A DNA stretch of 48,739 nt from Patescibacteria group bacterium. Lineage in GTDB: Bacteria > Patescibacteriota > Minisyncoccia > Phycocordibacterales > GWA1-40-21. A program made the translations under genes and the position numbers. Where the stretch lies: the NCBI GenBank assembly GCA_018968925.1, contig JAGWZI010000002.1, forward strand, positions 1 to 48,739. Direction: 5' to 3'. The notes under the pieces are model-generated. The model ran no database searches. It was given only the letters and a program-made list of their open reading frames with translations, and was not told the DNA's origin. The first letter of the stretch is position 1. Each line of letters starts with the position of its first letter. This document shows, piece after piece, positions 14,156 through 48,739 of the stretch.

Positions 14156-15685
14156 TTACTTTAGCAATTCAACCTCTTGTCCCGCAGGAGTATCTTTTAC
14201 AAAAACATTAAATTCTTGAGCAGCTTTTTTACGCAATTCATCTGCTTTTACCCAATCTTTTTGATTTCGTGCAGATTGTCTTTCTTGTAACAATTTATTT
14301 AACTCTTGTTTTTTTCCTTCAGAAAGAGATTTATTTACTTCTCCACGGATAAGCAAAAAAGTTACATTACTACCAATTACTTTATATGTTGGCTCAATTT
14401 TTTCTTTACTAATTTGTTTATTTTCTCCACCTTCTTTTAATTTTAATCCAAGCACATTATCAAAATCTATCGCCGTGGCTATTATTTGATCTGCTGCTAA
14501 ATCTGAATTGAGCATTTCATTCAATACATCCATCGCCTTCGGCATATTCAAATCATCATTAATAGCTTCTATGAATTTTTCTTTCCATTCTTGATTTATT
14601 TTTCCACCTTCTTTATTAAGATTTCCAAGTTTTGTATACAGATTTTCGAGACCATTCTTCGCCGCAGTAAGAATTTCTTCATTCCATTCCATCGGCTTCC
14701 TGTAATGCACGGAGAGCGACGCGAAGCGATAGGCGAGGGAATTGATGCCTTTCGCGACTGTCTCGCTTGAAACAGTCAGGAAATTGCCCGCGCTTTTTGC
14801 CATCTTCTCGCCGACTTTCACGTTCAGAAATTCGCCATGGATCCAAAAATTCACCCACGGATGCACGCCGGTCGCGGCTTCGGACTGGGCGATCTCATTC
14901 GTGTGGTGGACATTCACATGGTCCACGCCGCCGCAGTGGATGTCGAAATGCTCGCCGAGATATTTCATGCTCATTGCGGAACATTCGATATGCCAGCCGG
15001 GAAAGCCGATACCCCAGGGACTCGGCCATTCCATTTCACGCTTTTTGCCTTTCGGCGAGAATTTCCAGAGCGCGAAGTCGGTGTGGTTCTTTTTCTCGAT
15101 ATTCACTTCGACACGTGCGCCCTCCTTGAGCGATTCGAGCTTCTGGCCGGAAAGCTCGGCGTAGCGAGGGAACTTCGCCGTATCGAAATAGATGCCGTCG
15201 GATGTCCGGTAGGTGAATCCTTTTTTCTCGAGCGTCTCAATGAGCGCGATTTGTTCGGAAATATGATCCGTCGCTTTGCAAATGATCGCCGGATGTTCGA
15301 TGTTGAGCCGATCCTCGTCCTTGAAAAATTCCTTCGTATAGAAATCGGCGATCTGCCATGCCGTCTTGCCTTCCTTTTTCGCTTCCGCTTCGACTTTGTC
15401 CTCGCCCATGTCGCGGTCGTTTGTCAGGTGGCCGACATCCGTAATATTCATGACATGTTTTACGCGGTAGCCATCATATTGCAAAACGCGCCGCAGAATG
15501 TCCTCGAATATATAGGTGCGCATGTTGCCGAGATGCGGATAGTTGTAAACGGTGGGGCCGCACGTATACAAGCCGACGGAATTCTTTTGTATCGGCACGA
15601 ACAATTCCTTTTTCCGCGTGAGCGTGTTGTAGAGGTGGAGCGGCGGATGCTTCCTGCCGCCGAAGAGGGAAGCGAGATCAAGCAT
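14156..15685 (-). CDS. cysS: Cysteine--tRNA ligase
   Basis: HIGH-type motif CGPTVYNYPHLGNMRTY and KMSKS-type KMAKSAGN. The 3' third is sharply AT-rich (see findings). Confidence 0.93.
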   Translation of the reverse strand: MLDLASLFGGRKHPPLHLYNTLTRKKELFVPIQKNSVGLYTCGPTVYNYPHLGNMRTYIFEDILRRVLQYDGYRVKHVMNITDVGHLTNDRDMGEDKVEAEAKKEGKTAWQIADFYTKEFFKDEDRLNIEHPAIICKATDHISEQIALIETLEKKGFTYRTSDGIYFDTAKFPRYAELSGQKLESLKEGARVEVNIEKKNHTDFALWKFSPKGKKREMEWPSPWGIGFPGWHIECSAMSMKYLGEHFDIHCGGVDHVNVHHTNEIAQSEAATGVHPWVNFWIHGEFLNVKVGEKMAKSAGNFLTVSSETVAKGINSLAYRFASLSVHYRKPMEWNEEILTAAKNGLENLYTKLGNLNKEGGKINQEWKEKFIEAINDDLNMPKAMDVLNEMLNSDLAADQIIATAIDFDNVLGLKLKEGGENKQISKEKIEPTYKVIGSNVTFLLIRGEVNKSLSEGKKQELNKLLQERQSARNQKDWVKADELRKKAAQEFNVFVKDTPAGQEVELLK

Positions 15686-16178
15686 GGGCGTCTGGTTTTT
15701 TCTTCGCGACGGATTTTTTCCCCGCCGACTGTTCCTCGAGCCGTTTCAGGATCTCAAGCATCAGCGCGTTCTGCCGCTCGAGATGGATGAGGATCGTGTC
15801 GATCTCCTTCTCGGCGATCTGGTTCAGCTCAAAATCGGCCTCGGCGCGGATGTCGGCATGGTGACCTTGCAAGTTCTGTCCGACCATGATGATCGGCATG
15901 AGGATGAGCTGGATCATGCTTGACACGAGCGCCCAGACGAAAAAGAAGGGGAAGGAATCGAAATGGAATTTTACCGGGCCGAAGATGTTCCAGGCGAACC
16001 ACAGCAGGGTCCACACGATGATGGCATAGAAAAAGCCCATCGATCCGACCTTGTCCGTGATCCAAGCGGCAAGTTTCTGCGTGCCGGTCAGGTGTTCGCG
16101 GCGGAGAATATAGAGGTTGCGCAATGACGGGCGCAGTTTGCGGAGCTCTTCGCGGGAGAGCGGCTGTTCGTCGTTCAT
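15678..16178 (-). CDS. DUF1003-family membrane protein
   Basis: Two TMs plus ILMPIIMVGQNLQGHHADIRAEADFELN, which is characteristic of DUF1003. Its 3' end overlaps the cysS start by 8 nt. Confidence 0.7.
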   Translation of the reverse strand: MNDEQPLSREELRKLRPSLRNLYILRREHLTGTQKLAAWITDKVGSMGFFYAIIVWTLLWFAWNIFGPVKFHFDSFPFFFVWALVSSMIQLILMPIIMVGQNLQGHHADIRAEADFELNQIAEKEIDTILIHLERQNALMLEILKRLEEQSAGKKSVAKKKPDAHA

Positions 16179-16184
16179 GGCAAA

Positions 16185-16193
16185 ATTGTATCA
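16185..16193 (-). promoter_or_regulatory. Extended -10 box (TGATACAAT, minus strand) 6 nt upstream of the DUF1003 ATG
   Basis: The minus strand reads TGaTACAAT, then TTTGCC, then ATG (16178). Confidence 0.45.
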
Positions 16194-16235
16194 TGCGCCG
16201 GACATCGAATCCAGGTGGACACGTCGCCCGTATTT

Positions 16236-16244
16236 TGAGATAAT
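16236..16244 (+). promoter_or_regulatory. Extended -10 box (TGAGATAAT) 9 nt upstream of the ctpA ATG
   Basis: It lies back-to-back with the DUF1003 promoter in a 75-nt divergent spacer. Confidence 0.4.
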
Positions 16245-16253
16245 GGCCGGACT

Positions 16254-17498: not shown

Positions 17499-17501
17499 CT
17501 T

Positions 17502-19319: not shown

Positions 19320-19342
19320 TATGGAATGATAATCACACGAAC

Positions 19343-19801: not shown

Positions 19802-19844
19802 AAAAAACAAAGGGCGGCCGCGAAGCGGCCGCCCTTTGTTTTTT
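19802..19844. terminator. Bidirectional GC-rich hairpin terminator between rplI and rpmA
   Basis: AAAAAACAAAGGGCGGCCGC GAA GCGGCCGCCCTTTGTTTTTT is a perfect long stem. The 23-nt core recurs at 35721-35743. Confidence 0.7.
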
Positions 19845-20149: not shown

Positions 20150-20155
20150 AGCCGG

Positions 20156-20578
20156 GTGAGTATACAAGATGTCTCTTTCAAAATCAAGCGGCTTGCCGAC
20201 CGTATCGGCCAGGCTGTTCCCATGGCCCTTGCCGCCATCGCCAAAACCGATATGTTCGTCGCCATCCTCATCATCCTTGTGGGCCTCGCATCTTTTGCTC
20301 TCGGCAGACTTTCCGTCCTTGAAAACAACCGGGCGCCGATCGCCATATCGGCGGCGGGGGAGACCGCAAGCGCGGCGAGCGCCCTGCCAACGTCTCCCGC
20401 CGTGACGGGACAAGGGCAAGGCGTCGTATTCGCCTCGAAATCAGGCTCGAAATACTACTCTCCGACCTGCTCCGGCGCCTCGCGGGTGAAGCCCGAGAAC
20501 CGGGTCTGGTTCCCGTCGATCGCCGCCGCCGAAGCCGCCGGCCTCACTCCGGCCGCCAATTGCCCCGGGCTTCAATAA
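20156..20578 (+). CDS. Membrane-anchored protein with a C-terminal Ada-N-like (degenerate Zn-binding) motif
   Basis: TM segment MFVAILIILVGLASFALG. The C-terminal KYYSPTCSGASRVKPENRVWFPSIAAAEAAGLTPAANCPG resembles the Ada N-terminal metal-binding domain but keeps only 2 of its 4 Cys. The start is uncertain (GTG 20156 or ATG 20222). The track start at 19967 overlaps rpmA and was rejected. Confidence 0.5.
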   Translation: MSIQDVSFKIKRLADRIGQAVPMALAAIAKTDMFVAILIILVGLASFALGRLSVLENNRAPIAISAAGETASAASALPTSPAVTGQGQGVVFASKSGSKYYSPTCSGASRVKPENRVWFPSIAAAEAAGLTPAANCPGLQ

Positions 20579-20684
20579 ATGCAGCAAAGTTGATAGCAAA
20601 AATGGGAGTCAAAAATCGGTAAAATATGGCTTTATAGAGCCGTATGTTTATATTTGACTGACAGGAAAATCAGTGGTCTGACTA

Positions 20685-20713
20685 TTGACAGAAAAGCCGG
20701 AAAATGCTAACAT
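20685..20713 (+). promoter_or_regulatory. Sigma-70-type promoter TTGACA-17-TAACAT
   Basis: -35 at 20685-20690 and -10 at 20708-20713, upstream of the lysozyme-like gene. Confidence 0.5.
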
Positions 20714-20720
20714 ATTGGCA

Positions 20721-20747
20721 ATCAGGGGCAACCCTGATTTTTGATTT
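20721..20747 (+). promoter_or_regulatory. Leader hairpin plus U-tract immediately before the start codon
   Basis: ATCAGGG GCAA CCCTGAT followed by TTTTGATTT, then ATG at 20748. Confidence 0.35.
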
Positions 20748-21233
20748 ATGATGGAACTTTTGACAACGTCGTTCTTCGTCTTTTCGTCGATCTACGGCGG
20801 GCCGACAGCATCGAGCGCGATCGCATCAAGCTCGGCGTCCGTAACCCCCGCACCGCAGGTGGAAGAGGCAAGCACGACTCCGCATACGAATGCGGGACTC
20901 AAGGATGAGGCTCTTGCATACTTCAAGAATACGCCGATCCTTGCGAACATCGCCGGGTGCGAATCCCGATTCCGCCAGTATGACAAGCGCGGTAACGTCC
21001 TTGTCGGCGCAGTGAACAAAGGCGATATCGGCGTCATGCAGATCAACACGTACTACCAGGGCAAGAAGGCGGCCGAGCTCGGATACGATCTCGATACGCC
21101 GGAAGGCAACATGGCCTATGGCAAGTATCTCTACGAAAAGGAGGGTACCAAGCCGTGGGATTCGTCGTCCGCATGCTGGAAGCATGCCGATGACGCAAGT
21201 TCGACTGCAGACGATATCGTAGCAATGAATTAA
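20748..21233 (+). CDS. Secreted lysozyme-like / lytic transglycosylase-like protein
   Basis: Hydrophobic N-terminus, then IAGCESRFRQYD ... DIGVMQINTYYQGKKAAELGYD ... NMAYGKYLYEKEGTKPWDSSSACW. The CES catalytic-Glu context and GxMQIN are SLT/goose-lysozyme-like. Confidence 0.6.
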   Translation: MMELLTTSFFVFSSIYGGPTASSAIASSSASVTPAPQVEEASTTPHTNAGLKDEALAYFKNTPILANIAGCESRFRQYDKRGNVLVGAVNKGDIGVMQINTYYQGKKAAELGYDLDTPEGNMAYGKYLYEKEGTKPWDSSSACWKHADDASSTADDIVAMN

Positions 21234-21240
21234 ACAAACA

Positions 21241-21266
21241 AAACTCCGGGATTCCCGGGGTTTTGT
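21241..21266 (+). terminator. Intrinsic terminator after the lysozyme-like gene
   Basis: AAAACTCCGGG ATT CCCGGGGTTTT with one G:T wobble, followed by GTTTTG. Confidence 0.55.
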
Positions 21267-21360
21267 TTTGCATATGCAGACGGTTTTTGTTGAAGGGAAG
21301 GACAGGTTTTATTATTCTAGCAGTGTTCCACAATATACCTTTTGGTATATACATATAGGA

Positions 21361-21393
21361 TAAAAAGGAGGCGCGAGGTATTCCCCCGCGCCT
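21361..21393 (-). terminator. Intrinsic terminator (minus strand) after the 146-aa ORF
   Basis: The minus strand reads AGGCGCGGGG GAATA CCTCGCGCCT followed by CCTTTTTA. Confidence 0.55.
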
Positions 21394-21408
21394 TTGCCGT
21401 TTGAAGGC

Positions 21409-21849
21409 TTATCTGCCCACCACAGTGAGTGCGTCATCGAGTGATGGCGACCACATGGGACCATCGGTCCATGACTGTTGCTTCCGGAACCAGTGGTATT
21501 CGCCTTTTTGCCCGATTCTTTCCTCCTTCCCGATAAGGATCAGATTGGCTCCCCGACGCCATCTGAACAGCTTGTCGTATCTGGCGGTCATCTCTTCGGA
21601 AAAACGGGCAAGCTTCTCAAGCTCTTCGAGAGTATATATCTTCGGATCGCCGTTTATTGCGACGATCGAGATGTAATCGGGCTTGCCCGGACCCGGCCGA
21701 TCAAACGCCGCCGCAAGCATTCCGGCCACGGCACAGATGCCGTAGCCGTTGCCGCCTTTGTTCCACATGAGCTTCTTGATCAGTTCCTGCCGAGTTTGCT
21801 TCTTCGTGATGATTTTCACAAGAGCCTCCGCGATTGAAATAACGTTCAA
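21409..21849 (-). CDS. Hypothetical protein (146 aa), no recognisable family
   Basis: The ORF has coherent codon usage, its own TTGACA-16-TAATAT promoter and its own terminator. The listed start is TTG only 4 nt after the -10 box, so the true start is uncertain (next Met is MWNKGG). Confidence 0.5.
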   Translation of the reverse strand: MNVISIAEALVKIITKKQTRQELIKKLMWNKGGNGYGICAVAGMLAAAFDRPGPGKPDYISIVAINGDPKIYTLEELEKLARFSEEMTARYDKLFRWRRGANLILIGKEERIGQKGEYHWFRKQQSWTDGPMWSPSLDDALTVVGR

Positions 21850-21853
21850 AAAG

Positions 21854-21881
21854 ATATTACTGCAGATTTACCATTTGTCAA
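21854..21881 (-). promoter_or_regulatory. Sigma-70-type promoter (minus strand) TTGACA-16-TAATAT
   Basis: -35 at 21876-21881 and -10 at 21854-21859 (reverse complement). Confidence 0.45.
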
Positions 21882-21926
21882 TCATCATGTGACTTTGAGA
21901 AAAATTCCTTTATTTATTGCCTTGTT

Positions 21927-23024
21927 TCACTTGTTCTTCTTTGGATTGTTCCAGATCTTGCAAAAAGCTCCGTACACCTCCTCGACGGTTATCCGTTCAA
22001 TGAAGCCATGTTTTTTCAGAAAAAACCTCTGATAGAGGCCCCTGCCGCCCGACTTATCGAGCATGATGTCATTTGGATCCTGCGACATGTAGATATGCGG
22101 TCCGGGACCGTAAAGAACGATGCTTCGAAGCCCTGCGAGGTGAGCCATGTTGGCGGGTCCGCTGTCGATACCGATAAAATAGTCCGCCGCATTCATCAAT
22201 AACAGCAGTTCCGCCGTATCAATCTGCCCGATCAACGAAAACACGGGAAAATCGAGCCGGGAAGCTATGTACGCATAATCCTCCCGCTCTTTTTCCTGCC
22301 CGATAAAAATGAAATCAAGCTCCCCCAATGCATGTATATCTTTCAGAAGCAGCGCCCATTTCTCTTTATCCCATCGCATCATCGGCCAGCTTGCTCCGGT
22401 ATGAATGAGTATCTTTTTGTTTTTTGCGCCGATACGCAACCGGGAAATGATCGTTTCGTATTCTTCCTTCGTAAAATTGAAAATATCCTTGAAGAAAATA
22501 TCCTTTGGTCTGCCGTCAAACAAAGAAAAAACGAAATCCCGCCATTGCGTCGGTCTGCGGCGCAATACGGTATTTTTCAACAGATCGCATAGAGCGTACC
22601 GCGTCATGCGTTGCAGCGCCGTGGTCACCTTGGAGGCGCTGATAAACGGTGCGACGTTCTGCAATACGTCCCTGCTTGCCCTGATCAGGAAAACCTCCTC
22701 GTATGTTCCCGATACGGCGCCGCTCGTCGATTCGTTCGCTCTTCCCGCGACCGATTTGGCCACAAAAACATTTCGAACGCAAACGATCCTTTCCGCAAGA
22801 GACTTGAGCGGAGATGTCACCATGAGGTCTATCGTTTTGTCCGTTCTTTCGGAAAAATCAAACAGCGCCGGAAGCATCGCGACGAACTCCCCCACAAGGC
22901 ATGGCGCGACGACAAGCACGGCGTTGTTCGCGCATTCGGTCCGCTTGATCTTCGAGGCGCACCGGCGCACAAGGTACGGTTCCTCGATGATTTGCCGGAA
23001 ATAATCGAGGTTGAAAAAATTCAT
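21927..23024 (-). CDS. Glycosyltransferase family 9 (heptosyltransferase-like)
   Basis: ILIHTGASWPMMRWDKEKWALLL ... FIGIDSGPANMAHLAGLRSIVLYGP matches the GT9 C-terminal nucleotide-sugar-binding half. GC is lower than in the surrounding genes. Confidence 0.72.
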   Translation of the reverse strand: MNFFNLDYFRQIIEEPYLVRRCASKIKRTECANNAVLVVAPCLVGEFVAMLPALFDFSERTDKTIDLMVTSPLKSLAERIVCVRNVFVAKSVAGRANESTSGAVSGTYEEVFLIRASRDVLQNVAPFISASKVTTALQRMTRYALCDLLKNTVLRRRPTQWRDFVFSLFDGRPKDIFFKDIFNFTKEEYETIISRLRIGAKNKKILIHTGASWPMMRWDKEKWALLLKDIHALGELDFIFIGQEKEREDYAYIASRLDFPVFSLIGQIDTAELLLLMNAADYFIGIDSGPANMAHLAGLRSIVLYGPGPHIYMSQDPNDIMLDKSGGRGLYQRFFLKKHGFIERITVEEVYGAFCKIWNNPKKNK

Positions 23025-23359: not shown

Positions 23360-24706
23360 CTACTTGAGAAGCGCCAGAGCCGCCGCAATGCGTGCCAGGG
23401 ACTCTTTTTTGCCGAAAATGGCGAGCAGGACGAACGGATCAGGGGACTTTTCCCTACCCGACAAGGCGACCCGCAACGGCCAGAGGACGTTCCCCCTCCC
23501 CTTCTCCTCAGCAAGCGGCATAAGGGCGGATTTGAGCCGTTCTGCGTCGAAATCGGCATCGGCAAGGGCGGCAAGCTTTTCTGAAACAAGCACGAGGTTC
23601 TCGCGCGCTTCCGCTGCCGTGCCGCCTTTCTTCCAGACGAGCATTTCCTGAGAAAATTTTGGCTGTTCAAAAAAATATTGAATATCTCCATCCGCCACCA
23701 TTTTATCTATGTCGGACCAAACAGAAATTCTCTCAACTATTATTTCGGAAAGTTTTTCAATCATTAAATCATTCTGACAGTTTTTAGGAAATCTTTTTTT
23801 AATTTCTTTATCAATTTCCATCGGTGAAAGCCGATTCATATACTCTTTGTTATACCAAAGTAATTTTTCTGGATTAAAAATTGCGCCGGCTTTTTGTACT
23901 TTTGTGATATCAAATCTAGAAATTATTTCTTCTACACTCATAACTTCTCTAGTGGTTCCCGGATTCCAGCCGAGAAATGCGAGATAGTTTACGACGGCTT
24001 CCGGCAAATAGCCTTTCTCACGATAATATTTCACGGAGACGAGCTCGCCCGCTTGGCGTTTCGAAAGTTTTGACCGGTCGGCGTTCAGAATGAACGGCAT
24101 ATGGGCATAGACCGGCCGCGGCGCGCCGATCGCTTCCTGAATCAGGATCTGCCGCGGCGTGTTGTAGATGCCGTCCTCGCCGCGGATGACGTGCGTCACG
24201 CCCATCTCGAAATCGTCGACGACGACGGCAAAATGGTAGATCGGCTCGTCGACGGATTTCGCGATGACGAAATCGCCGAGCTCGGCCGTATCGACGGTAA
24301 TGTCGCCGCGGATCATGTCAGTAAAAGTAACTTTCTTGCCCGGATTCTTCAGACGGATGACTTTGGCGCGCTGTCCCGCTTCTTTCACCTCTTCTTTCGA
24401 CACGTACGCCTTGCCGTCGGCAATGAGCTGTTCAAGATATTTTTTGTACGTCGCCGAATGCGCCGATTGCCTGTACGGATGGGAAAAATCGATGTCGATG
24501 CCGAGCCACTGCAAACCGGACACGATATCGTCGGCATATTCCTGCTTGGACCTTTCGCGATCGGTATCCTCGAGACGGAACAGGAGCTTGCCGCCGTTTT
24601 TCTTCACGAAAAAGTAATTAAACAGCGCGGTGCGGGCGTTGCCGATATGGAACGGGCCGGTCGGCGATGGCGGAAAACGGGCGACGATGTGGGATTTATT
24701 GCTCAT
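23360..24706 (-). CDS. gltX: Glutamate--tRNA ligase
   Basis: VARFPPSPTGPFHIGNARTALFNY (HIGH) and SKLSKRQ (KMSKS). I used the ATG at 24706, which overlaps the murG stop by 11 nt. An internal AT-rich block is described in the findings. Confidence 0.92.
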   Translation of the reverse strand: MSNKSHIVARFPPSPTGPFHIGNARTALFNYFFVKKNGGKLLFRLEDTDRERSKQEYADDIVSGLQWLGIDIDFSHPYRQSAHSATYKKYLEQLIADGKAYVSKEEVKEAGQRAKVIRLKNPGKKVTFTDMIRGDITVDTAELGDFVIAKSVDEPIYHFAVVVDDFEMGVTHVIRGEDGIYNTPRQILIQEAIGAPRPVYAHMPFILNADRSKLSKRQAGELVSVKYYREKGYLPEAVVNYLAFLGWNPGTTREVMSVEEIISRFDITKVQKAGAIFNPEKLLWYNKEYMNRLSPMEIDKEIKKRFPKNCQNDLMIEKLSEIIVERISVWSDIDKMVADGDIQYFFEQPKFSQEMLVWKKGGTAAEARENLVLVSEKLAALADADFDAERLKSALMPLAEEKGRGNVLWPLRVALSGREKSPDPFVLLAIFGKKESLARIAAALALLK

Positions 24707-25826
24707 GGGAAAGGGCGATACGCAGGATTTCCCCGGCGATCTCGTGCGCGGCGTCGGTTTTGACAAAATTCTTTGCGCCGGCGGACATCCGTGCAGAGAG
24801 CGCCGGATCGTCCATGATGCGCTTGATCTCGGAAAGAAGAATTGTTGGAGAAAGATTCCCCTCCTCTATCACGGTCGCACCGCCCGACTCGGCATAGAAA
24901 TAGGCGTTCTGGCGCTGATGGTCGCCGTTCGTGTTCGTGATCGGAATGAGGATGCTCGGCAAGCCCCAGTTCGCGATCTCGAAGATCGCCGAACCCGCGC
25001 GCGAGATGACGAGATTCGCCGCGCCGGCCGCCATGCTCATGTTCAGATTGTCCAGGTAATCGAACGGACGGTAGCGATCCTTGTGCGGATGATCGGCAAG
25101 GACGACGTTCGCCGTGCCGAGCACGTCCTGCATGTTTCCCTTGCCGATCTGATGGATGACGTAATAGCGGTCGACAAGCGACGGAATGATGCTCATCAGG
25201 GTATCATTGATGACGCGCGCGCCGAGGGATCCGCCGACGACGAGCAGGACGGGGATGTTTTCCTTCATGCCGAAGAATTCGCGCGCCGCGTCCGCTTTCT
25301 GCAATACGCGAACGTTCGTGCGGATCGGATTGCCGGTCACCGCCACTTTCTTCTGATCGAAATATTTTGCCGCCTGCGGATACGATACGGCGATGCGCTT
25401 TGCGAACTTGCCCGCCCAGGCGTTCGCCCTGCCCGGCACGGAATCGGATTCGTGAATGACGACCGGAATGCCGAAGAACCGCGCGGCGAGGACGACCGGA
25501 AAACTGACGTAGGCACCCTTGCTGAAGACGACGTCGGGAAAGATCCGGTAGACCTCGATCATCGCTCCAATGACGCCGAAAAACGTCTTGACGAGATCGA
25601 CGATGTTGAGAAGCGAAAAATAGCGGCGCAATTTGCCGGCAAAGATTCTGACGAAACGGATATTGTTCTCGACGAGCATGTCGGCGTCGTGCGGCGCGTC
25701 GGAAAGATAATAGAGATCGACTGGCAGGAGCTTCTCTTCCCGCACCATCGCATTGATCTCCTCGGCGACCGCAATGAGCGGGTAGAAATGCCCTCCGGTG
25801 CCGCCGCCTGTCAGTATCACTTTCAT
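24696..25826 (-). CDS. murG: UDP-N-acetylglucosamine--lipid I GlcNAc transferase MurG
   Basis: MKVILTGGGTGGHFYPLIAVAEE is the canonical MurG N-terminus. The ATG at 25826 lies 1 nt after the ftsW stop. Confidence 0.92.
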   Translation of the reverse strand: MKVILTGGGTGGHFYPLIAVAEEINAMVREEKLLPVDLYYLSDAPHDADMLVENNIRFVRIFAGKLRRYFSLLNIVDLVKTFFGVIGAMIEVYRIFPDVVFSKGAYVSFPVVLAARFFGIPVVIHESDSVPGRANAWAGKFAKRIAVSYPQAAKYFDQKKVAVTGNPIRTNVRVLQKADAAREFFGMKENIPVLLVVGGSLGARVINDTLMSIIPSLVDRYYVIHQIGKGNMQDVLGTANVVLADHPHKDRYRPFDYLDNLNMSMAAGAANLVISRAGSAIFEIANWGLPSILIPITNTNGDHQRQNAYFYAESGGATVIEEGNLSPTILLSEIKRIMDDPALSARMSAGAKNFVKTDAAHEIAGEILRIALSHEQ

Positions 25827-27989: not shown

Positions 27990-29819
27990 TTATTGCATGA
28001 ACGTATCATACCAGAGCGCGAGCATGATGAGAACGTAGAGCTTGCGGGCATGGTCGGCCGCGCCGGACTCGTGTTCCGCGATCATCCGCTCGATCGCGGT
28101 CATGTCGAAATGCGCCGCGACATATGCATTTTTCCGCACAAGATCGAAGACATGCGCGCCATTGCTCTTGAGCCATGCGGCGAGCGGAATGGGAAAGCCG
28201 AGCTTCCTGCGCGTGCGCGTCGCTTCCGGAATGACGCCGCGGAATGCTTCGCGCAGGAGCCATTTCGTCTCGTCGCCTCGCCATTTGAGCGAATCGGGCA
28301 ATGTGCGCGCCAGTCCCGCAACCTGCATATCGAGGAACGGCACGCGCAGTTCCAAGGAATTTGCCATTGTCATCTTGTCCGCTTTCGCGAGAATGTCGCC
28401 GACAAGCCAGGTATGGATATCGACATATTGCATCTTGGTCGGATCGGAAAGGTCGGCGACGCTCGCGTAGACGGTATCAAGCGAGAATTTCTCCTGCGGC
28501 TTCCTTTTCCAGAGCGAAGCGATCTCGCGCGGCTTGAAGACGGACGCGTTGCCGATATACCAGGTTGAGAGCTTCTCATGGACGCGCCGGAGAAAATTTT
28601 TTCCGGGAAAATGAAACGGCAAGGATACGAAAAATCCCGTGACGCTTTTCGGCAGCCAGGCGAGGCGACGATATGCGAACGGCGCGAGATAGATGTTGTA
28701 GCCGCCGAAGAGCTCGTCTGCGCCTTCGCCCGAAAGAACGACCGTCACGTGCTTGCGCGCTTCGCGGGCGACGAAATAGAGGCCGATGGCCGACGGATCG
28801 GCGACCGGCTCGTCAAAATGCCAGACCGCTTTCGGCAGCGTGGCAAAATATTCGTCCGGACCGATCGTGATCTCGGTATGGTCCGTGCCGAGGAAATCGG
28901 ATGTCTGTCTTGATTTCATTCCCTCCGACAGACGATCGAAACCGACGGTAAAGGTCTTCACCTTCTTTCCGCCCATGTTTTTGTCGAGCGTGCGCTGCAT
29001 CAGGGTCGCGATGATGCTCGAGTCGATGCCGCCCGACAGGAACGCGCCGACGGGCACGTCCGCGATCATGTGATGCTCGACGGAATCCTTGACCGTCGCA
29101 AAAACCTTTTCTTTCGTGCGCTCATCGAGTTCCTTATCCTGCGCGAAGGAAAATGCCCAGTATTTTCTCATTTCATATGCGCCGGTATCTGCCGAGATTT
29201 TCAGGAAATGTCCGGGCGGCAGTTTGAAGATGTTCTTGAAAAAAGTTTCTTCGAGCGGATTGTACTGGAACGACAGGTAATTGAAAACGGCCGCATCGTT
29301 CACTTCACGCGCAAAACCGGGAATCTCGAGAAAGCTCTTGATTTCCGAGGAGAACGCGAGGATCTTCCCGTTCTGTTTCCAGTAATAGAGCGGCTTGATG
29401 CCGAAGAAATCCCGGGCGATGAAGATCGTCTTCTTTTTCGTATCGTAGATCGAAAACGCGAACATGCCGCGCAATTTCGGCAGCATCGCTTCGCCGTATT
29501 TCTCGTAGAGATGCAGGATGACCTCCGTATCGCCCTCGGTCGTCCAAGAGAATTCTTTCTCGATGTCCTTCCGCAGCTCTTTATAATTGTAGATTTCGCC
29601 GTTGAAAAAGATGACCTTCGCGCCGTCCGCGGAAAAGATCGGCTGCTTGCCAGTCGACAGGTCGATGATGGACAGCCGCCGCATGCCGAGGCCGACCGAA
29701 GCATCGGAAAAATAGCCGTCCTGGTCGGGGCCGCGATGGACGAGCGCGTCCGTCATCTTCTTGTTCACGCCCGCCTTGTCCGCGACGCGCGAATCGATAA
29801 TGCCGCAAATGCCGCACAT
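27990..29819 (-). CDS. asnB: Asparagine synthase (glutamine-hydrolysing) family amidotransferase
   Basis: MCGICGI N-terminal nucleophile Cys2 and the PP-loop SGGIDSS. The start was trimmed to make Cys residue 2. Confidence 0.88.
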   Translation of the reverse strand: MCGICGIIDSRVADKAGVNKKMTDALVHRGPDQDGYFSDASVGLGMRRLSIIDLSTGKQPIFSADGAKVIFFNGEIYNYKELRKDIEKEFSWTTEGDTEVILHLYEKYGEAMLPKLRGMFAFSIYDTKKKTIFIARDFFGIKPLYYWKQNGKILAFSSEIKSFLEIPGFAREVNDAAVFNYLSFQYNPLEETFFKNIFKLPPGHFLKISADTGAYEMRKYWAFSFAQDKELDERTKEKVFATVKDSVEHHMIADVPVGAFLSGGIDSSIIATLMQRTLDKNMGGKKVKTFTVGFDRLSEGMKSRQTSDFLGTDHTEITIGPDEYFATLPKAVWHFDEPVADPSAIGLYFVAREARKHVTVVLSGEGADELFGGYNIYLAPFAYRRLAWLPKSVTGFFVSLPFHFPGKNFLRRVHEKLSTWYIGNASVFKPREIASLWKRKPQEKFSLDTVYASVADLSDPTKMQYVDIHTWLVGDILAKADKMTMANSLELRVPFLDMQVAGLARTLPDSLKWRGDETKWLLREAFRGVIPEATRTRRKLGFPIPLAAWLKSNGAHVFDLVRKNAYVAAHFDMTAIERMIAEHESGAADHARKLYVLIMLALWYDTFMQ

Positions 29820-29858
29820 ATGCGGCAAAATATAGCATATTTCGGCTCGAAAGTCCGC

Positions 29859-32490: not shown

Positions 32491-33888
32491 TTATTTTTTC
32501 TTCTTGATCTCGATCCGCAGATCCCGGAGCTGTTCCGCCGACACCGGCCCGGGCGCGTTCATCATGAGATCGCGGCCTTCGCCCGATTTCGCGAATGCGA
32601 TCGTCTCGCGGATGTTCGGCTCGTTCTCGAGGATCATGACAAGACGGTCGAGTCCCCAGGCGATGCCGCCGTGCGGCGGAACGCCGGTTTCGAATGCGCG
32701 AAGCATATGGCCGTACTGCGATTCGATCTTCTCGGCGGAAAAATCCATGATCTCGAGCGTTTTGCGCAAAGCCTCGGGCCGGTGGTTGCGGATGCTGCCG
32801 CCGCCGGCTTCGTTGCCGTTGAGCACCAAATCATACTGCGCCGCCATGATCGTTTCGATATTTTTCTTCGCCATGAGGTCGCCCATCGATTCCGGTTTCG
32901 TCGTCGAGAAGGGATTATGCGTGAACGTCCATTTGCCGTCGTCGCCTTTCTCGAACATGGGAAAGTCAACCGTCCAGGCGAACGCGAGCAGATCCAGATC
33001 GTTCTTGTCTTTTCGCAGGTCCGGCTTGTCCGTGCCGTATTTCGCCATCGCTTCGGCATACGGGATTTTCGGGAACGGGATCTCTTGGATCTTCTTGTGC
33101 GGATAGAGTTTCTTCACGACTTCAATGATGACCTTCTCGTTCACCGCCATCACGTCTTCCTCCGTTGCGAAGCTCATTTCGAGGTCCATCTGCGTGAATT
33201 CCGGCTGGCGGTCGCCGCGGGAATCCTCGTCGCGAAAGCATCGCGCAAACTGGAAATATTTTTCAAAACCGGCGGCCATGAGAAGCTGCTTGTATTGCTG
33301 GGGCGACTGCGGCAATGCGTAAAAATTGCCGGGCTCGAGACGCGATGGCACGATGAAGTCACGCGAGCCTTCGGCGGTCGCGTTCGTCAGGTTCGGCGTC
33401 TCGATCTCGGTGAATCCTTCCGCGGCAAGGAGGGTGCGCACCAAGGTCATGATCGAGCTGCGGTTCCGGATATTCTTCTGCAAGCGCGGACGGCGCAAGT
33501 CGAGCCAGCGATGCGAGAGGCGCGCGTCCTCGCCGATATCGCGGCCGTCGCCGCGCACGTCAAACGGCGGCGTGACTGCTTCGTTCAGGACGTTCATCGA
33601 GAGGATTTCAATCTCGATCGTGCCATTCGCTTCGTCTTTGTTCACCATCCGTTCCGGCCGGGCGTTCACTTTGCCCGTCACTTCGACGACCCATTCGGGA
33701 CGAACCGTGTTCGCCATCTCGTGCGCTTCCGCATGGTTCGGCAGAGCGACCATCTGGACTTTGCCCGACATATCGCGCAGGTCGATGAAAATGAGCTTGC
33801 CATGGTCGCGCCGCACGTCCACCCATCCGGCGATCTTCACCTCCTTCCCGATTTCCTTGTTCAGTTCCCCGATATATGTGCGTTTCAT
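32491..33888 (-). CDS. aspS: Aspartate--tRNA ligase, bacterial-type core without the GAD insertion domain
   Basis: QSPQQYKQLLM, FRDEDSRGDRQPEFTQMDLEMSF, GGGSIRNH and GIAWGLDRLVM. It is only 465 aa. Confidence 0.92.
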   Translation of the reverse strand: MKRTYIGELNKEIGKEVKIAGWVDVRRDHGKLIFIDLRDMSGKVQMVALPNHAEAHEMANTVRPEWVVEVTGKVNARPERMVNKDEANGTIEIEILSMNVLNEAVTPPFDVRGDGRDIGEDARLSHRWLDLRRPRLQKNIRNRSSIMTLVRTLLAAEGFTEIETPNLTNATAEGSRDFIVPSRLEPGNFYALPQSPQQYKQLLMAAGFEKYFQFARCFRDEDSRGDRQPEFTQMDLEMSFATEEDVMAVNEKVIIEVVKKLYPHKKIQEIPFPKIPYAEAMAKYGTDKPDLRKDKNDLDLLAFAWTVDFPMFEKGDDGKWTFTHNPFSTTKPESMGDLMAKKNIETIMAAQYDLVLNGNEAGGGSIRNHRPEALRKTLEIMDFSAEKIESQYGHMLRAFETGVPPHGGIAWGLDRLVMILENEPNIRETIAFAKSGEGRDLMMNAPGPVSAEQLRDLRIEIKKKK

Positions 33889-33929: not shown

Positions 33930-33958
33930 TTGACATATAATAAATAAAGTGATAAAAT
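33930..33958 (+). promoter_or_regulatory. Sigma-70-type promoter TTGACA-17-TAAAAT for the ClpP-like gene
   Basis: -35 at 33930-33935 and -10 at 33953-33958. The leader contains a perfect AGGAGG at 33985-33990. Confidence 0.5.
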
Positions 33959-33996
33959 TGTTATTGGTTGATCTTCATCAAAACAGGAGGAAAAGA

Positions 33997-34566
33997 ATGG
34001 ATCCAAAATCGCTGGATAATGGCAAACTGGAAGCATTGTTGAAAAAGAACGTCTTTCCGATCGTTGGCGACATCGACGGGAAAATCTTGAATCTGGTACA
34101 GGACGCCTTTAGCAAGCTGTACATCCAAGAAAATCCGCCGGATATCTTGGTCTTGCTAAGCAGTCCAGGCGGTTCCGTAAAACGAGGGCTCTTTGTTTAC
34201 GATCTGCTCCGGTTGTATCCGGGAAAGAAAACGGCGATCGTCGTCGGCGAAGCGTCCTCGATGGGAGCAATCATTCTGCAGGCATGCGACAAGCGGTATG
34301 CGACAGAAAATGCCTGGATATTGATCCATAATCTCACGAACACCGAGATAAAACTGGATCAGTTGCGCGACAAAGCGAAGCTTGAGGAGTTGCTTGCCGA
34401 CAATGAAAAACTGCAAGCAAAGCAGTACGCCATTATCGCGAAACGAACGGGAAAATCTATGGAGGAAATTCGCGAGGTTTTCGCAAAAGATAAATCCATG
34501 GACGTTTCCGAAGCGGTCGCCTTTGGCCTCCTCGACGGTATCTGGGACCAGCCGCTTCCAAAATAA
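33997..34566 (+). CDS. ClpP-family (S14) serine protease-like protein, orphan
   Basis: LLSSPGGSV, GEASSMGAIILQA (Ser), ILIHN (His), KDKSMDVSEAVAFGLLDGI. The ATG lies 6 nt after AGGAGG. GC is lower than in the flanking genes. Confidence 0.7.
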   Translation: MDPKSLDNGKLEALLKKNVFPIVGDIDGKILNLVQDAFSKLYIQENPPDILVLLSSPGGSVKRGLFVYDLLRLYPGKKTAIVVGEASSMGAIILQACDKRYATENAWILIHNLTNTEIKLDQLRDKAKLEELLADNEKLQAKQYAIIAKRTGKSMEEIREVFAKDKSMDVSEAVAFGLLDGIWDQPLPK

Positions 34567-34609: not shown

Positions 34610-35675
34610 AATAGATTGAAATTCCGACTTTTTGCCTTACGTCCTGCATTTTCTTTTCAGCCCGTGCAGATGCGCGTTTGCCGCCGTCCTTCAAGATCTT
34701 CAAAACATTTTTCATGTCTTTCGCGAGCTTTTCTCTCTTTTCGCGGAGCGGTGTGATGAACGCGGTCAGGTCTTTGATAAGAAGTTCCTTCGCCTCTTTG
34801 TATCCCATACCGCCTTTTTCGTATTTCGCGCGAAGTGATTTTACTCCTTTTTCATCAAGCAGAAGTTTGTGGATGGAAAAAAGTATGGACTCGTCCGGAT
34901 TTTTCGACTCATCCACGCCCTTTGAATCCGTCGGAATCTTCATCACGGCTTTCTTGATCTCGTCATCCGTAGCAAAAAGCGGAATGACATTGTCGTAGCT
35001 TTTCGACATTTTGCGGCCGTCCGTGCCGGGAACGGTTTCAACGGCGGAAAGGATGAACGGTTCCGGCAATTTGAATGTCTCACCATATTTATTATTGAAT
35101 TTCTGCGCCGTGTCGCGCGCGTATTCGATATGTTGTTTTTGATCTTTTCCTACCGGCACAATATCCGCATCCTGAATAAGAATATCTGCAGCCATAAGAA
35201 TTGGGTAATCAAGAACGCCTGTATTAGTACCACTAAAAAGTCTTGTTGTTTTATCTTCAAACGATTCATCTAAATTACCAACTTTAGACAAGTTTTTAGA
35301 AAGTTGTTTTTTAAAATCAGCTTGAAGAAATTCTCTAAAAGAATGCCCAAGCATTAAATAAGAAACTGAAGTAATACAATTAAACATCCAGCAAAGTTCC
35401 GTCACCTGCGGCAGATCGGACTGCTTGAAAAGCGTGATCTTTTTCGGATCAAGGCCGATGGCGAGATAGTCGAGCGCAACGTCGATGATCCCCTGCCGAA
35501 GCTCCGCCGCGTTCTGCACCGTCGTCATCGCGTGGTAATCGGCGATGAAAATATAGCAGTCATGCTTGTCCTGGAGATCGACGAACTGCTTCATCGCGCC
35601 GAAATAGTTGCCGAGATGCACCCGGCCGGTCGGCTTCACGCCGGAAAGGAGGATTTTCTTCGGTTCTTTGGACAT
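34608..35675 (-). CDS. trpS: Tryptophan--tRNA ligase
   Basis: SGVKPTGRVHLGNYFGAMKQF (HIGH-type), PVGKDQKQH and KMSKS. An internal AT-rich block with an insertion is described in the findings. Confidence 0.92.
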   Translation of the reverse strand: MSKEPKKILLSGVKPTGRVHLGNYFGAMKQFVDLQDKHDCYIFIADYHAMTTVQNAAELRQGIIDVALDYLAIGLDPKKITLFKQSDLPQVTELCWMFNCITSVSYLMLGHSFREFLQADFKKQLSKNLSKVGNLDESFEDKTTRLFSGTNTGVLDYPILMAADILIQDADIVPVGKDQKQHIEYARDTAQKFNNKYGETFKLPEPFILSAVETVPGTDGRKMSKSYDNVIPLFATDDEIKKAVMKIPTDSKGVDESKNPDESILFSIHKLLLDEKGVKSLRAKYEKGGMGYKEAKELLIKDLTAFITPLREKREKLAKDMKNVLKILKDGGKRASARAEKKMQDVRQKVGISIY

Positions 35676-35710: not shown

Positions 35711-35753
35711 GAAAAGAAACGGGCGGCCGCGAAGCGGCCGCCCGTTTCTTTTC
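35711..35753 (-). terminator. GC-rich hairpin terminator after dnaJ
   Basis: GAAAAGAAACGGGCGGCCGC GAA GCGGCCGCCCGTTTCTTTTC. The core is identical to the one at 19812-19834. Confidence 0.65.
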
Positions 35754-43539: not shown

Positions 43540-43550
43540 GTTTTCGTTGT

Positions 43551-43766: not shown

Positions 43767-43809
43767 GAACGACGCATCATCCTAACAAATTATAAAGGGA
43801 GAGTCAATG

Positions 43810-46122: not shown

Positions 46123-46137
46123 TGTTTTGATTATACA

Positions 46138-47295
46138 TTATTTCGCGCGCAAACGCTCGCAGAACGCAATGTTCATCTTCACGTCAGGGTCGCCGGGAAA
46201 CGCCTGTGCGTTGCCGATGCGCGCGATGAACATATCGTCGCCGATCGTGACGACATCCGCCGGCCCGTCGCCCGCATGGAACGGATTCCCCTTCGCGCCG
46301 CTCATTTCCTCCGCGGCAAAATGCCCGATATCGGTTTTCGGCGCGATGAAAACGGTTTTCGGCGCTCCCGACGGGCACATCGCGGCGATGGTGCCGGCAA
46401 GTTCTTTTTCCCACGTTTCCACCGCCGCGTCGATCGGCGCTTCCATCTTCTTGCGCGACAAGGCTTCATAATTGCCGATGCGCCGGATGGCGACGGCGGA
46501 CGCGACCAATCCTTTCGGTCTTGCTGACTTGGTCGACGCGGATTCGATGATGCGCCGGGCGCCCGACGGGAATGAGGCCGTCGCGGCGACCGTTCCGCCG
46601 CGGACGGCAAGCACGTCGGTCACAAAATCGTTCATGTCGACATAGATGAAATCGCGGATCTCGGGATATGCGGCGCGGATGAAGGAATGCGCGGCGAGGA
46701 GGGCCGAGCCGCGCCGGGCGGCATGGGCCGGAAGCCGTCGTGCGAGCGCGACCGGAGCGAACGACACATACGTATCTATCTCGCAATTGACGGCCTGTTT
46801 GCCGATGATGTTCCCGACCGCATAGCCGTTCAGACGTGATTCGAGCACTTTTTCCTCGATGACCTGCCAGTCGCGAATGCCGGATCGGCGCGTAAGAATG
46901 TTCATCATGCTTGACTCCTCTCCGAGGAGCACCTTTTTCAAAAAGCCCGCGTCGATGGAAAACGGGCGGTCTTTGGCGACACGGATCGTCTTTGCCTGCG
47001 ACATCACCCACGGCGATCCGAAAAAGAAATACTGGGCACCGACATGTTCCCGCACCCCGGTTTCTGCAAGCATCCGCCGCGCATCGAGCGCCGCCTGGTC
47101 AACCGTCGCGAGCATCGCCGCGAGATGCTTGTCGTGGTCGTCCGGCGCGATGACCGGAATCGCGAAATCGCGGCACGAGAGCATGTCAGGCTTCTTCCCT
47201 TCCTCGAAGGCGACGGCTGCGACCGTGAGCCGCGCATCGCGGACGTCAAAGACGAGCGTAATTTCCCGTTTCGATTGTGAAGAAAAAAGACCCAT
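46138..47295 (-). CDS. Hypothetical protein, possibly a degenerate actin-like (FtsA/PilM-superfamily) fold
   Basis: ITLVFDVRDARLTVAAV and IYVDMNDFVTDVLAVRGG loosely resemble phosphate-1 and phosphate-2 motifs but lack the Gly residues. The functional call is weak. Confidence 0.45.
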   Translation of the reverse strand: MGLFSSQSKREITLVFDVRDARLTVAAVAFEEGKKPDMLSCRDFAIPVIAPDDHDKHLAAMLATVDQAALDARRMLAETGVREHVGAQYFFFGSPWVMSQAKTIRVAKDRPFSIDAGFLKKVLLGEESSMMNILTRRSGIRDWQVIEEKVLESRLNGYAVGNIIGKQAVNCEIDTYVSFAPVALARRLPAHAARRGSALLAAHSFIRAAYPEIRDFIYVDMNDFVTDVLAVRGGTVAATASFPSGARRIIESASTKSARPKGLVASAVAIRRIGNYEALSRKKMEAPIDAAVETWEKELAGTIAAMCPSGAPKTVFIAPKTDIGHFAAEEMSGAKGNPFHAGDGPADVVTIGDDMFIARIGNAQAFPGDPDVKMNIAFCERLRAK

Positions 47296-47302
47296 ATGGG
47301 CC

Positions 47303-48739
47303 TTATTCTAGCACAGCTTTTATTCTGCGCACGCCGGCGGAGACCGCCTCTTCCTTCACGATCTTGAAATGTCCGAGTTCGCCTGTGTTTTTGACATGCG
47401 GGCCGCCGCAGAATTCGATGCTGAAATAGCCGCCGTCTTTCACGCCGATCTTGTAGACTTTCACGACGTCGCCGTAATGCGAAAGATCGAACGCGAGCGT
47501 CGTCGCGATCTTTTCCGCCTCCGGCTTCGGCAATTCCTGCATTTCGACCGGCAGATGTTCCTTGATCTTCTCGTTCACGAGATCTTCCACCGCTTTCACC
47601 TGCTCCGGCGTCAATTTCGTCGGCCAGTTGAAATCAAAGCGCATGCGCTCCGCCGTGATATTGCTTCCCTTCTGGACGATTGCTTGTCCGAGCACTTTCT
47701 GCAGAGCCGCGAGCGTCAAATGCGTCGCCGTGTGGTATTTCGTCTCCTGCTCGCCAGTTGAAGCAAGTCCTCCTTTGAATTTCTGTTCACTACCGGCGCG
47801 GGAAATGTCCTGGTGTTTTTTGAATTCTCCCTGGAAACCAGCAATATCAACTTTTATTCCCTTTTGATTCGCCATTTCCACGGTAAGCTCGAGCGGGTAA
47901 CCATATGTCGAAAACAATTTGAACGCATCTTCGCCGGAAATATCTTTGGTGCTGATCTTATTGAAGATTTTTTCACCTTCGACAAGAGTTTTGGTAAATT
48001 TTAATTCTTCATCTGCAAGAATATTCCTAACATGCTTTTGTTTAGTTTTAATCTCGGCGTATACATCCTTATATTTTTCAGCGACAATGCCGACAAAGCT
48101 ATTGAGAGAATTTTGCAATTGAATGCTTGCCGCATTAAAAGCCGCTCGGCGTATTAAACGACGAAGCACATAACCTTGCTCGGTATTCGAAGGGATCACT
48201 CCGTCTGCAATCATAAATACAGAACTGCGAATGTGATCAGCGATGATCCTTACTTTTCTCATATATTCTTCCTTTGTTTCGAAAGAAATATTGGATGGCA
48301 AAGCCTTGCGAGGCGTAGCAAGAATTGCATTCATTAAGTAATCAAAAAGATCGGTTTCGAACACAGTACTTTTCTGTTGCATCACTACGGCAGTTCTTTC
48401 CAAACCCATGCCGGTGTCGACGTTCTGCTTTGCAAGCTTTTCGATGCTGCCGTCGGCTTTCTTGTTGAACTCCATGAAGACGTCGTTCCAGATCTCGATG
48501 ATCCGTCCTTGCTTCACGAGGTCATGGAATTTCCCTTCAAGCTTGCCACCGACGACATCGTAGAACATTTCCGTGTCCGGACCGCACGGACCGGTGTTGC
48601 CTGCGATCCAGAAATTGTCGTCCGTTCCGAGCGGCACGATGCGCACGTCGCCGGAAATCTTTTCATCAGCGCCTGCGACGCCTGCCTTGATATTGTGCTT
48701 CGCAAAATTTTCTTCCCAATGCTTGATCGATTCCTCGTC
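47303..48739 (-). CDS. alaS: Alanine--tRNA ligase, 5'-partial (runs off the window), lacking a C-Ala domain
   Basis: NFWIAGNTGPCGPDTEMFYD, GMGLERTA, the editing-domain motifs HTATHL and CGGPHV. The frame stays open to 48739 (..DEESIKHWEENFAK..). The stop comes right after VRRIKAVLE. Confidence 0.9.
   Translation of the reverse strand, partial: DEESIKHWEENFAKHNIKAGVAGADEKISGDVRIVPLGTDDNFWIAGNTGPCGPDTEMFYDVVGGKLEGKFHDLVKQGRIIEIWNDVFMEFNKKADGSIEKLAKQNVDTGMGLERTAVVMQQKSTVFETDLFDYLMNAILATPRKALPSNISFETKEEYMRKVRIIADHIRSSVFMIADGVIPSNTEQGYVLRRLIRRAAFNAASIQLQNSLNSFVGIVAEKYKDVYAEIKTKQKHVRNILADEELKFTKTLVEGEKIFNKISTKDISGEDAFKLFSTYGYPLELTVEMANQKGIKVDIAGFQGEFKKHQDISRAGSEQKFKGGLASTGEQETKYHTATHLTLAALQKVLGQAIVQKGSNITAERMRFDFNWPTKLTPEQVKAVEDLVNEKIKEHLPVEMQELPKPEAEKIATTLAFDLSHYGDVVKVYKIGVKDGGYFSIEFCGGPHVKNTGELGHFKIVKEEAVSAGVRRIKAVLE

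Follow-up and report, generated by a model that had tools for sequence, protein, structure and literature searches.

Aminoacyl-tRNA synthetase (aaRS) genes are essential, single-copy and widely used as phylogenetic and completeness markers, and they are reportedly prone to horizontal gene transfer. Exchange of gene segments under selection is familiar from the mosaic penicillin-binding-protein genes of Streptococcus and Neisseria and from the shuffling of target-recognition domains in the type I restriction gene hsdS, both of which proceed by homeologous recombination. Within the aaRS themselves, the closest described case is the bacterial GluRS2, a domain-level chimera that arose through horizontal gene transfer and whose catalytic and anticodon-binding domains come from different sources (Dasgupta & Basu 2014, PMC3927822). 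Here, we analysed a 48,739-nt stretch of DNA (the window) from a bacterium of the candidate phyla radiation (CPR; Patescibacteria), in which four of the five aaRS genes, cysS, gltX, trpS and alaS, each contain one in-frame block of codons of strikingly low GC content. Horizontal transfer of aaRS genes and mosaic genes are already known. What is new is that, over a distance of 49 kb, all but one of five aaRS genes contain un-ameliorated, motif-bounded, orphan AT-rich segments, which are absent from about 60 other genes and recur in sibling genomes. No description of such aaRS blocks, nor any mention of the assembly, was found in the searchable literature.

As in GluRS2 and other chimeric aaRS, parts of one enzyme appear to have different histories, breaks are found near domain borders and the tRNA-binding module seems to have been exchanged apart from the catalytic core (here in cysS and alaS). 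The chimeric aaRS described so far are ancient, were inferred from trees and carry no compositional trace, whereas the AT-rich segments of the window are un-ameliorated. Unlike in those cases, the breaks are not always at domain borders, those of trpS lying inside the catalytic domain and the gltX segment running across a border, and the same sites are affected in sibling genomes. The mosaic penicillin-binding-protein genes and hsdS share with the present genes a sharp foreign or divergent block within a conserved essential gene, often of atypical GC, with crossovers in conserved stretches and an alternation of variable and conserved modules. Their donors, however, are identifiable close relatives, typically at 5-25% DNA divergence, and the selective agent is known, while here the block proteins differ by 35-50% from all known sequences, with a gap in third-codon-position GC (GC3) of 0.35-0.55 between recipient and block. 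A reduced codon bias under recurrent positive selection, through Hill-Robertson interference or genetic draft, has reportedly been seen in Drosophila. There too fast protein evolution coincides with a loss of preferred codons, but these effects are small and gene-scale, and a fall of GC3 from 0.7 to 0.15 confined to 250-650 nt of a bacterial gene is not known to be among them.

In a sliding GC profile of the window, the biggest low-GC stretches lay at 14.0-14.7, 23.6-24.0, 35.1-35.4 and 47.8-48.4 kb, corresponding to cysS, gltX, trpS and alaS by Pfam assignment. The blocks were then delimited with a maximum-likelihood change-point scan on GC3, scored by the log-likelihood ratio (LLR). Each of the four genes gave one block, with a GC3 of 0.14-0.37 inside compared to 0.64-0.73 outside: 0.17 versus 0.70 in cysS (LLR 67), 0.23 versus 0.71 in gltX (LLR 38), 0.14 versus 0.64 in trpS (LLR 35) and 0.37 versus 0.70-0.73 in alaS (LLR 30-31). 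Chance was ruled out as the cause of these dips, since the highest LLR values of shuffled (permuted) genes were about 5-13, and 811 open reading frames (ORFs) from 83 unrelated loci had their 99th percentile at 14. As aaRS family background, 67 trpS genes gave LLR values of 9.7 or less and 24 aspS genes of 13.2 or less.

The fifth aaRS gene of the window, aspS, showed no block (LLR 3.1). The remaining correctly called window genes and 20 more genes of the same contig were also without a block, at LLR values not exceeding about 11, and dnaK, rpoA, the ribosomal protein genes, glmS and dnaB, all on this contig, were block-free in the scan. Blocks in four of five aaRS genes against none in about 60 other genes of the same metagenome-assembled genome (MAG) correspond to a Fisher p of 7.4e-6. 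An earlier inspection of the letters alone, hereafter the sequence-only reading, had claimed an in-frame low-GC block in each of the four genes, none in aspS and nothing like it in other genes; the scan bore out all three statements (LLR 30-68 for the four blocks). It had also taken the genes at 20.6-23.3 kb and a ClpP-like gene to be low-GC over their whole length, which proved incorrect, their GC3 of 0.59-0.69 being only mildly low. The coordinates of the aaRS genes and of the blocks are collected in the following table.

Positions in the window of the five aaRS genes and of the blocks detected in four of them
Feature	Position	Strand	Basis
cysS, cysteinyl-tRNA synthetase, 509 aa	14156..15685	-	Pfam tRNA-synt_1e residues 29-343, CysS_C 460-505
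cysS block, codons 335-506, 516 nt	14168..14683	-	GC3 scan
gltX, glutamyl-tRNA synthetase, maximal ORF 468 aa, true start uncertain	23360..24766	-	Pfam tRNA-synt_1c, Anticodon_2
gltX block, codons 272-372, 303 nt	23651..23953	-	GC3 scan
trpS, tryptophanyl-tRNA synthetase, 355 aa	34608..35675	-	Pfam tRNA-synt_1b
trpS block, codons 98-182, 255 nt	35130..35384	-	GC3 scan
alaS, alanyl-tRNA synthetase, 3' 1437 nt including stop	47303..48739	-	Pfam tRNA-synt_2c, tRNA_SAD
alaS block, codons 247-463 of full protein (217 codons), 651 nt	47756..48406	-	GC3 scan
aspS, class II Asp/Asn-type synthetase, 465 aa, internal control	32491..33888	-	Pfam tRNA-synt_2 and OB anticodon-binding domain

Every internal junction of the blocks falls on a strongly conserved motif, and the reading frame and the collinearity with PDB homologues are preserved. 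The cysS product, which is collinear with PDB CysRS and has an exact match on the NCBI MAG contig JAGWJB010000002.1, changes composition on the MEWNEEI motif (5' junction). From there the block takes in everything C-terminal of the catalytic domain, i.e. the helical bundle and the anticodon-binding domain, and reaches the stop codon. It contains an insertion of ~33 aa (ENKQISKEKIEPTYKVIGSNVTFLLIRGEVNKSLS; window 14285-14390, codons ~433-467) that is absent from all of the 120 closest CysRS and that aligns weakly to a longer C-terminal region of the PDB CysRS 8qhp and to a few representative hits in single stretches. The gltX product is likewise collinear with its PDB homologues (GluRS), and its block, between LGWNPG and LVWKKGG, takes in, by the Pfam models, the last part of the catalytic/stem-contact region together with the first part of the anticodon-binding domain. 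Since the product of the maximal gltX ORF has no exact copy in the protein collection, the annotated start probably differs from the start of that ORF.

The trpS block is internal to the catalytic domain, around the AHAYKD loop and the DYPxLMAADIL helix, with its junctions on ELCWMFNC and VPVGKDQKQH. It holds ~27 extra aa (window 35253-35333, codons ~115-141), and PDB TrpRS match the product in two stretches, one on each side of this insertion. The insertion has the appearance of a partial duplication, made locally, of the AHAYKD-loop region (GHSFREF... followed by ...ESFEDK), and both copies of the repeat (HSFRE... and ESFEDK...) were aligned by HMMER to the same residues, 109-113, of PDB 3m5w. 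As the catalytic signatures DYPILMAADIL and GKDQKQH are kept in the trpS product, we see no sign of pseudogenisation. The alaS block extends from the DTGMGLER motif to the KFKGGLA motif, aligns with residues ~236-434 of PDB 3hxu and matches the second half of the 441-residue fragment of E. coli AlaRS, which we take to be the tRNA-recognition domain. The gene itself continues past the window end, to which its frame is open, and is complete at L168:8152-9993 (613 aa). In the AlaRS, the tRNA_SAD editing-domain motif is followed directly by the C-terminus, and a C-Ala/DHHA1-like C-terminal domain is missing. A short AlaRS appears to be typical of the clade, ~120 close homologues all being 590-655 aa long.

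An intein or an inserted mobile element was ruled out, the blocks being collinear homologous parts of the enzymes with only ~27-33 aa extra within two of them. That the blocks encode the expected homologous parts, as had been proposed from the letters alone, holds as far as collinearity is concerned; the insertions in cysS and trpS and an abnormal divergence, presented below, depart from it.

We examined the codon usage inside the blocks. The GC3 predicted from the amino acids of the blocks and the codon usage of the genome is 0.70-0.73, compared to the observed 0.14-0.37, which rules out amino-acid composition as the cause of the dip. Of the 22 arginine codons in the blocks, 9 are AGA, compared to 11 of 339 elsewhere, and of the 50 leucine codons, 12 are TTA, compared to 4 of 543; further codons preferred in the blocks are ATA, TCT/AGT, AAA, GAA, AAT and GAT. 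These counts, which are conditioned on the amino acid, substantiate the preference for A/T-ending codons that had been noticed in the letters. Considering that the deviation extends to first-position synonymous choices (AGA, TTA), the dialect of the blocks indicates a long residence under AT pressure and not a recent local decay. The flanks have an amino-acid composition at the GC-rich extreme, and that of the blocks is displaced in the direction of the AT-rich family average.

Weakly conserved segments outside the aaRS genes keep a high GC3, with ~0.74 in those of <50% identity among 280 windows taken from 11 non-aaRS genes, and 0.74 in the neighbouring gene hyp385, whose product is 32% identical to its orthologue. 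A general coupling of weak protein conservation with low GC3, through accuracy selection or divergence-limited gene conversion, was ruled out on these 280 windows. A C-terminal dip universal to cysS was ruled out as well: across 84 cysS genes the difference in GC3 between the N- and the C-part is ~0.04 (by eye), and differences of at least 0.24 are found only in the window genome, L086/L087, L002 and L060.

The proteins encoded by three of the blocks are as unusual as their codons. Blocks and flanks were compared by pairwise identity and by the Spearman correlation of identities to homologues, so that these comparisons are identity-based throughout. The best block identity of cysS to its 120 homologues is 0.54, the second lowest of 121 sequences, compared to a family median of 0.76 and a best flank identity of 0.83. 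In alaS the corresponding values are 0.59 for the block, 0.81 for the family median and 0.87 for the flanks, and in trpS they are 0.67 (second lowest of 67), 0.92 and 0.82, in a region that is normally the best-conserved part of TrpRS (67 sequences). The similarity of the block to homologues is not correlated with that of the flanks, the Spearman coefficient being 0.04 for cysS (fifth lowest of 121) and -0.21 for alaS (third lowest of 120). By these measures, the cysS, trpS and alaS blocks are orphans, without a clear nearest relative.

Similar blocks were found in sibling genomes. The contigs L170 and L086 belong to one ENA assembly (ERZ27256499), seem to be joined in a single JGI contig of 110,645 nt and were taken as the same genome, with a GC of about 0.50. 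Its alaS block (L170, codons 272-456) has a GC3 of 0.16 versus 0.63 (LLR 62) and its cysS C-terminus (L086) a GC3 of 0.21 versus 0.60 (LLR 22), while 22 neighbour genes on L170/L086 gave LLR values of 16 or less in all and of 10 or less in 20. The L086 CysRS is encoded identically in the ENA MEGAHIT contig, in a Logan contig (L087) and in a JGI contig. Two Logan contigs from other runs exhibit an alaS block (L085, LLR 26) and a cysS C-terminal dip (L002, LLR 16-17), and a dip in cysS (LLR 21) was seen as well in L060, a GC-rich genome that is less closely related. The alaS blocks of L170 and L085 are at the same place as that of the window. The sibling L084 (GC 0.51) has no alaS block, and in the two low-GC siblings, L171 (0.35) and L003 (0.41), AT-richness is uniform.

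The sequence-only reading had held that congruent phylogenies of block and flanks, together with the same dip in all relatives, would speak against it. The dip is indeed present in GC-rich siblings (cysS in L086, L002 and L060; alaS in L170 and L085), but it is not in all of them, as L084 demonstrates. In our reading, recurrence in siblings speaks against an artefact and not against the biological interest of the blocks. On the L170 contig, a PLD-like, non-aaRS gene (L170:14962-15828) shows a GC3 of 0.33 versus 0.71 over codons 4-75 (LLR 15.9).

The five sibling AlaRS genes compared share identities of 0.83-0.92 in the flanks but of 0.48-0.66 in the blocks, and the block and flank identities are unrelated; L085 and L170, for instance, have flanks at 0.92 and a block at 0.54. 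The low-GC siblings do not show this hyperdivergence of the block. Over the AlaRS family, block and flanks have the same nearest neighbour in only 37% of the sequences. The AlaRS P0137 has its best flank neighbour at identities of 0.88 (flanks) and 0.55 (block), and its best block neighbour at 0.81 (block) and 0.78 (flanks). The genomes syntenic with the window (L171, L003, L085, L170/L086, L084, L002 and the window genome itself) have a genomic GC of 0.35-0.56 with AlaRS flanks that are 83-92% identical. Therefore, base composition is evolving very fast in this Paceibacteria clade.

With slightly less than even confidence, we favour the reading that the blocks are sub-genic mosaic replacements, brought in from unsampled AT-rich donors by recombination at conserved motifs. 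One internal module of each gene would have been swapped for a homologous segment long resident in an AT-rich genome: the anticodon-binding C-terminal half in cysS, the tRNA-recognition domain in alaS, the junction of the catalytic and anticodon-binding domains in gltX and the insertion-bearing stretch of the catalytic domain in trpS. As the crossovers would have taken place within short, highly conserved motifs, the reading frame and the domain order would have been kept. Such exchange may be tolerated because aaRS enzymes are modular and stand-alone. Paceibacteria are mostly AT-rich, and the segments would derive from divergent AT-rich lineages or elements that are as yet unsampled; the process would be recurrent in the higher-GC members of this Paceibacteria clade.

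In favour of mosaic replacement count the sharp blocks in four of five aaRS genes against none in about 60 others, the foreign dialect, the junctions on motifs, the uncorrelated similarities of block and flanks, the unrelated block and flank identities of the sibling AlaRS genes, the discordant neighbours of P0137, the AT-ward shift in amino acids and the GC3 kept by poorly conserved non-aaRS windows. The chimerism of GluRS2 (PMC3927822) is a precedent that supports it further. The blocks themselves, their confinement to aaRS genes, the dialect, the position of the junctions, the orphan status and the recurrence in siblings are observed; the recombination events and the nature of the donors are what we infer. 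Domain-level recombination with low-GC donors had already been suggested by the sequence-only reading. The dialect, the motif junctions and the uncorrelated or discordant similarities of block and flanks agree with that suggestion, but no donor was found, and the blocks are orphans and not ordinary low-GC homologues.

Several points weigh against mosaic replacement. An exhaustive HMMER search of 1.84 billion representatives with the cysS block gave no donor, the best matches being 56-64% identical and fragments only. For the trpS block, the best of the JGI metagenome matches listed was 51% identical and none carried the insertion, and IMG/VR scans for phage or mobile-element donors gave no relative of the blocks. 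Orphan blocks in cysS, alaS and trpS are unexpected if the donors were ordinary Paceibacteria, since these families are otherwise well sampled and their typical members find a block match of 0.76-0.92. In gltX, for which ~3 homologues were available, block and flanks are 0.60 and 0.79 identical, respectively, to those of the low-GC relative L003, a ratio that resembles the one between two low-GC relatives and shows no discordance. The same block positions in several siblings could mean an inherited, persistently AT-rich state. In addition, a GC3 of 0.14-0.17 implies almost no amelioration, and recombination by itself does not account for the restriction to aaRS genes.

A GTDB genome scan with the CysRS gave nothing nearer than 59% among the matches listed, which serves as a background value only, and a word-index protein search with the blocks alone returned 98 uninformative candidates. 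The short cluster representatives P0122 and P0126 proved to be unrelated fragments. A recent exchange with sampled relatives was ruled out, since the blocks do not exceed the flanks in third-position identity at conserved residues, all values being near saturation; a measure of the excess over composition is inflated by two-fold codons. The variable region of a diversity-generating retroelement was ruled out in turn, with no repeat of any block in the 48.7-kb window and no reverse transcriptase domain among the annotated genes.

Vertical inheritance of the blocks, with an unusually fast and AT-ward evolution in situ in the higher-GC lineages, is an unlikely account, although the one that comes next. 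The modules could possibly be under recurrent positive or diversifying selection, e.g. against an antagonist of the aaRS-tRNA interface, and local hitchhiking would possibly then defeat the weak force (codon selection or GC-biased gene conversion) that holds GC3 high; agents targeting aaRS, also proposed in the sequence-only reading, are a possible driver of such hypervariability. It is also possible that these segments escaped a recent GC rise of the clade. This account is consistent with orphan blocks that are roughly equidistant (about 50-60%) from all relatives and bear private insertions, and with AT-rich blocks at the same positions, in alaS of the window genome, L085 and L170 and in the C-part of cysS of the window genome, L002, L086 and L060. 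The fast change of GC in the clade, an intergenic GC in the window of ~0.35-0.41, which is consistent with AT-biased mutation, and the failure of the searches made to find a donor point in the same direction.

Nevertheless, no mechanism is known for a 250-650-nt tract at GC3 0.15 within a gene at GC3 0.7. Other fast-evolving genes, such as hyp385, are normal in GC3, the variable stretches of gltX outside its block have a GC3 of 0.5-0.6, and the hyperdivergence is not seen in the low-GC siblings. The heavy use of AGA, TTA and ATA needs a long AT equilibrium, and the block identities among siblings are independent of the relatedness of the flanks, which also argues against evolution in situ.

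Robust under both mosaic replacement and in-situ evolution is that defined aaRS modules of this clade are hypervariable and compositionally foreign. A wider proposal, which we consider doubtful, is that aaRS modules, mostly the tRNA-reading parts, are hypervariable cassettes in GC-rich Paceibacteria, with a turnover far above that of the remaining gene, through repeated AT-rich import or an arms race. If so, an antagonist or a compatibility constraint at the aaRS-tRNA interface of episymbionts would be implied, and the modules would be recognisable in raw sequence by their compositional scar. If tRNA-recognition modules do undergo domain-level exchange or runaway evolution, this would point to an unrecognised pressure on the translation of episymbionts (toxins, phage factors or tRNA compatibility). 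If several CPR aaRS genes are sub-genic mosaics, marker-gene trees and contamination checks can be misled. The sharp contrast between block and flanks is also a rare opportunity for dating such events and for a test of GC maintenance (mutation bias, biased gene conversion or codon selection) within one gene.

An assembly or binning chimera, in which aaRS segments of a co-occurring AT-rich relative were threaded into the contig at shared k-mers, had been raised in the sequence-only reading as a systematic artefact; we consider it very unlikely. The sequence comes from a single MAG, with no independent assembly of the organism in the collections, the conserved motifs at the junctions could have supplied shared k-mers, and AT-rich relatives are abundant in such communities. 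However, in contrast to the sequences of ordinary relatives, the blocks rank with the most divergent sequences of their families and have insertions of their own. Over the four genes, a chimera would call for eight exact matches of the assembler's k-mer length, one at each junction, while the longest exact nucleotide matches are 14-29 nt even with relatives that are 83-87% identical, and 15 nt at the cysS junction. Far more conserved genes of the contig (dnaK, rpoA, ribosomal proteins, glmS and dnaB) are unaffected. Like blocks are present in siblings from other samples and assemblers, including the conservative, unitig-based Logan contigs L002, L085 and L087, and the L086/L087 protein is identical in three assemblies. 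Were the blocks artefactual after all, they would reveal a way in which MAG assembly fails systematically at marker genes.

Functional codon de-optimisation, i.e. rare A/T-ending codons kept by selection for slow translation during folding or for a coupling to rare tRNAs or their charging, is extremely improbable: the richness of the blocks in genome-rare codons (TTA, AGA, ATA and TCT), their recurrence at the same positions in siblings and their restriction to aaRS genes would fit it, but it leaves the protein hyperdivergence and the insertions unexplained, the block extents vary among siblings with L084 lacking the alaS block, the amino-acid composition of the blocks is also shifted, and selection of this sort is not known to act on tracts of 85-217 codons.

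The window corresponds to bases 55113-103851 (reversed) of contig JAGWJB010000002.1 (249.8 kb) of the MAG GCA_028865965.1, the contig from which the 20 extra genes were taken. In collections searched with its proteins, the organism was found in this one MAG only, the window copy aside. With a GC of 0.557 over its whole length, the window is unusually GC-rich for CPR/Patescibacteria. Because the nearest labelled relatives of its CysRS and AlaRS are proteins of Candidatus Paceibacterota/Minisyncoccia, we assign the organism, on these labels, to a Paceibacteria-like lineage of the CPR. No tRNA genes were found in the window.

The scan yielded some further observations on non-aaRS sequences. In the window ORF 11347-11760 (+), whose start is possibly mis-called, codons 2-36 have a GC3 of 0.31 versus 0.86 (LLR 18.5). 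Among the 811 background ORFs, window genes excepted, the sole one with an LLR above 30 is L032:16259-17218, from a Desulfobacterales MAG (LLR 37.9, GC3 0.82 versus 0.36); it is unannotated and may be a wrong-strand ORF or another mosaic. In the glycosyltransferase-containing region 20566-23024 and in the ClpP-like gene 33949-34566, gene GC is 0.48-0.56 and the low-GC spots are mostly intergenic.

The AspRS of the window, a class II enzyme with an N-terminal OB anticodon-binding domain, is short, since its 465 aa compare with ~590 aa in the bacterial AspRS and are nearer to the size of archaeal/eukaryotic-type or AsnRS-like forms. An asnB-like asparagine synthase gene is located at 27990-29828. 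A 41-nt GC-rich perfect hairpin flanked by A-runs and T-runs (AAAAACAAAGGGCGGCCGCGAAGCGGCCGCCCTTTGTTTTT) is present in two copies that are 85% identical, at 19803-19843 and 35712-35752. The hairpin resembles a bidirectional intrinsic terminator, and one copy is located directly upstream of the trpS start.

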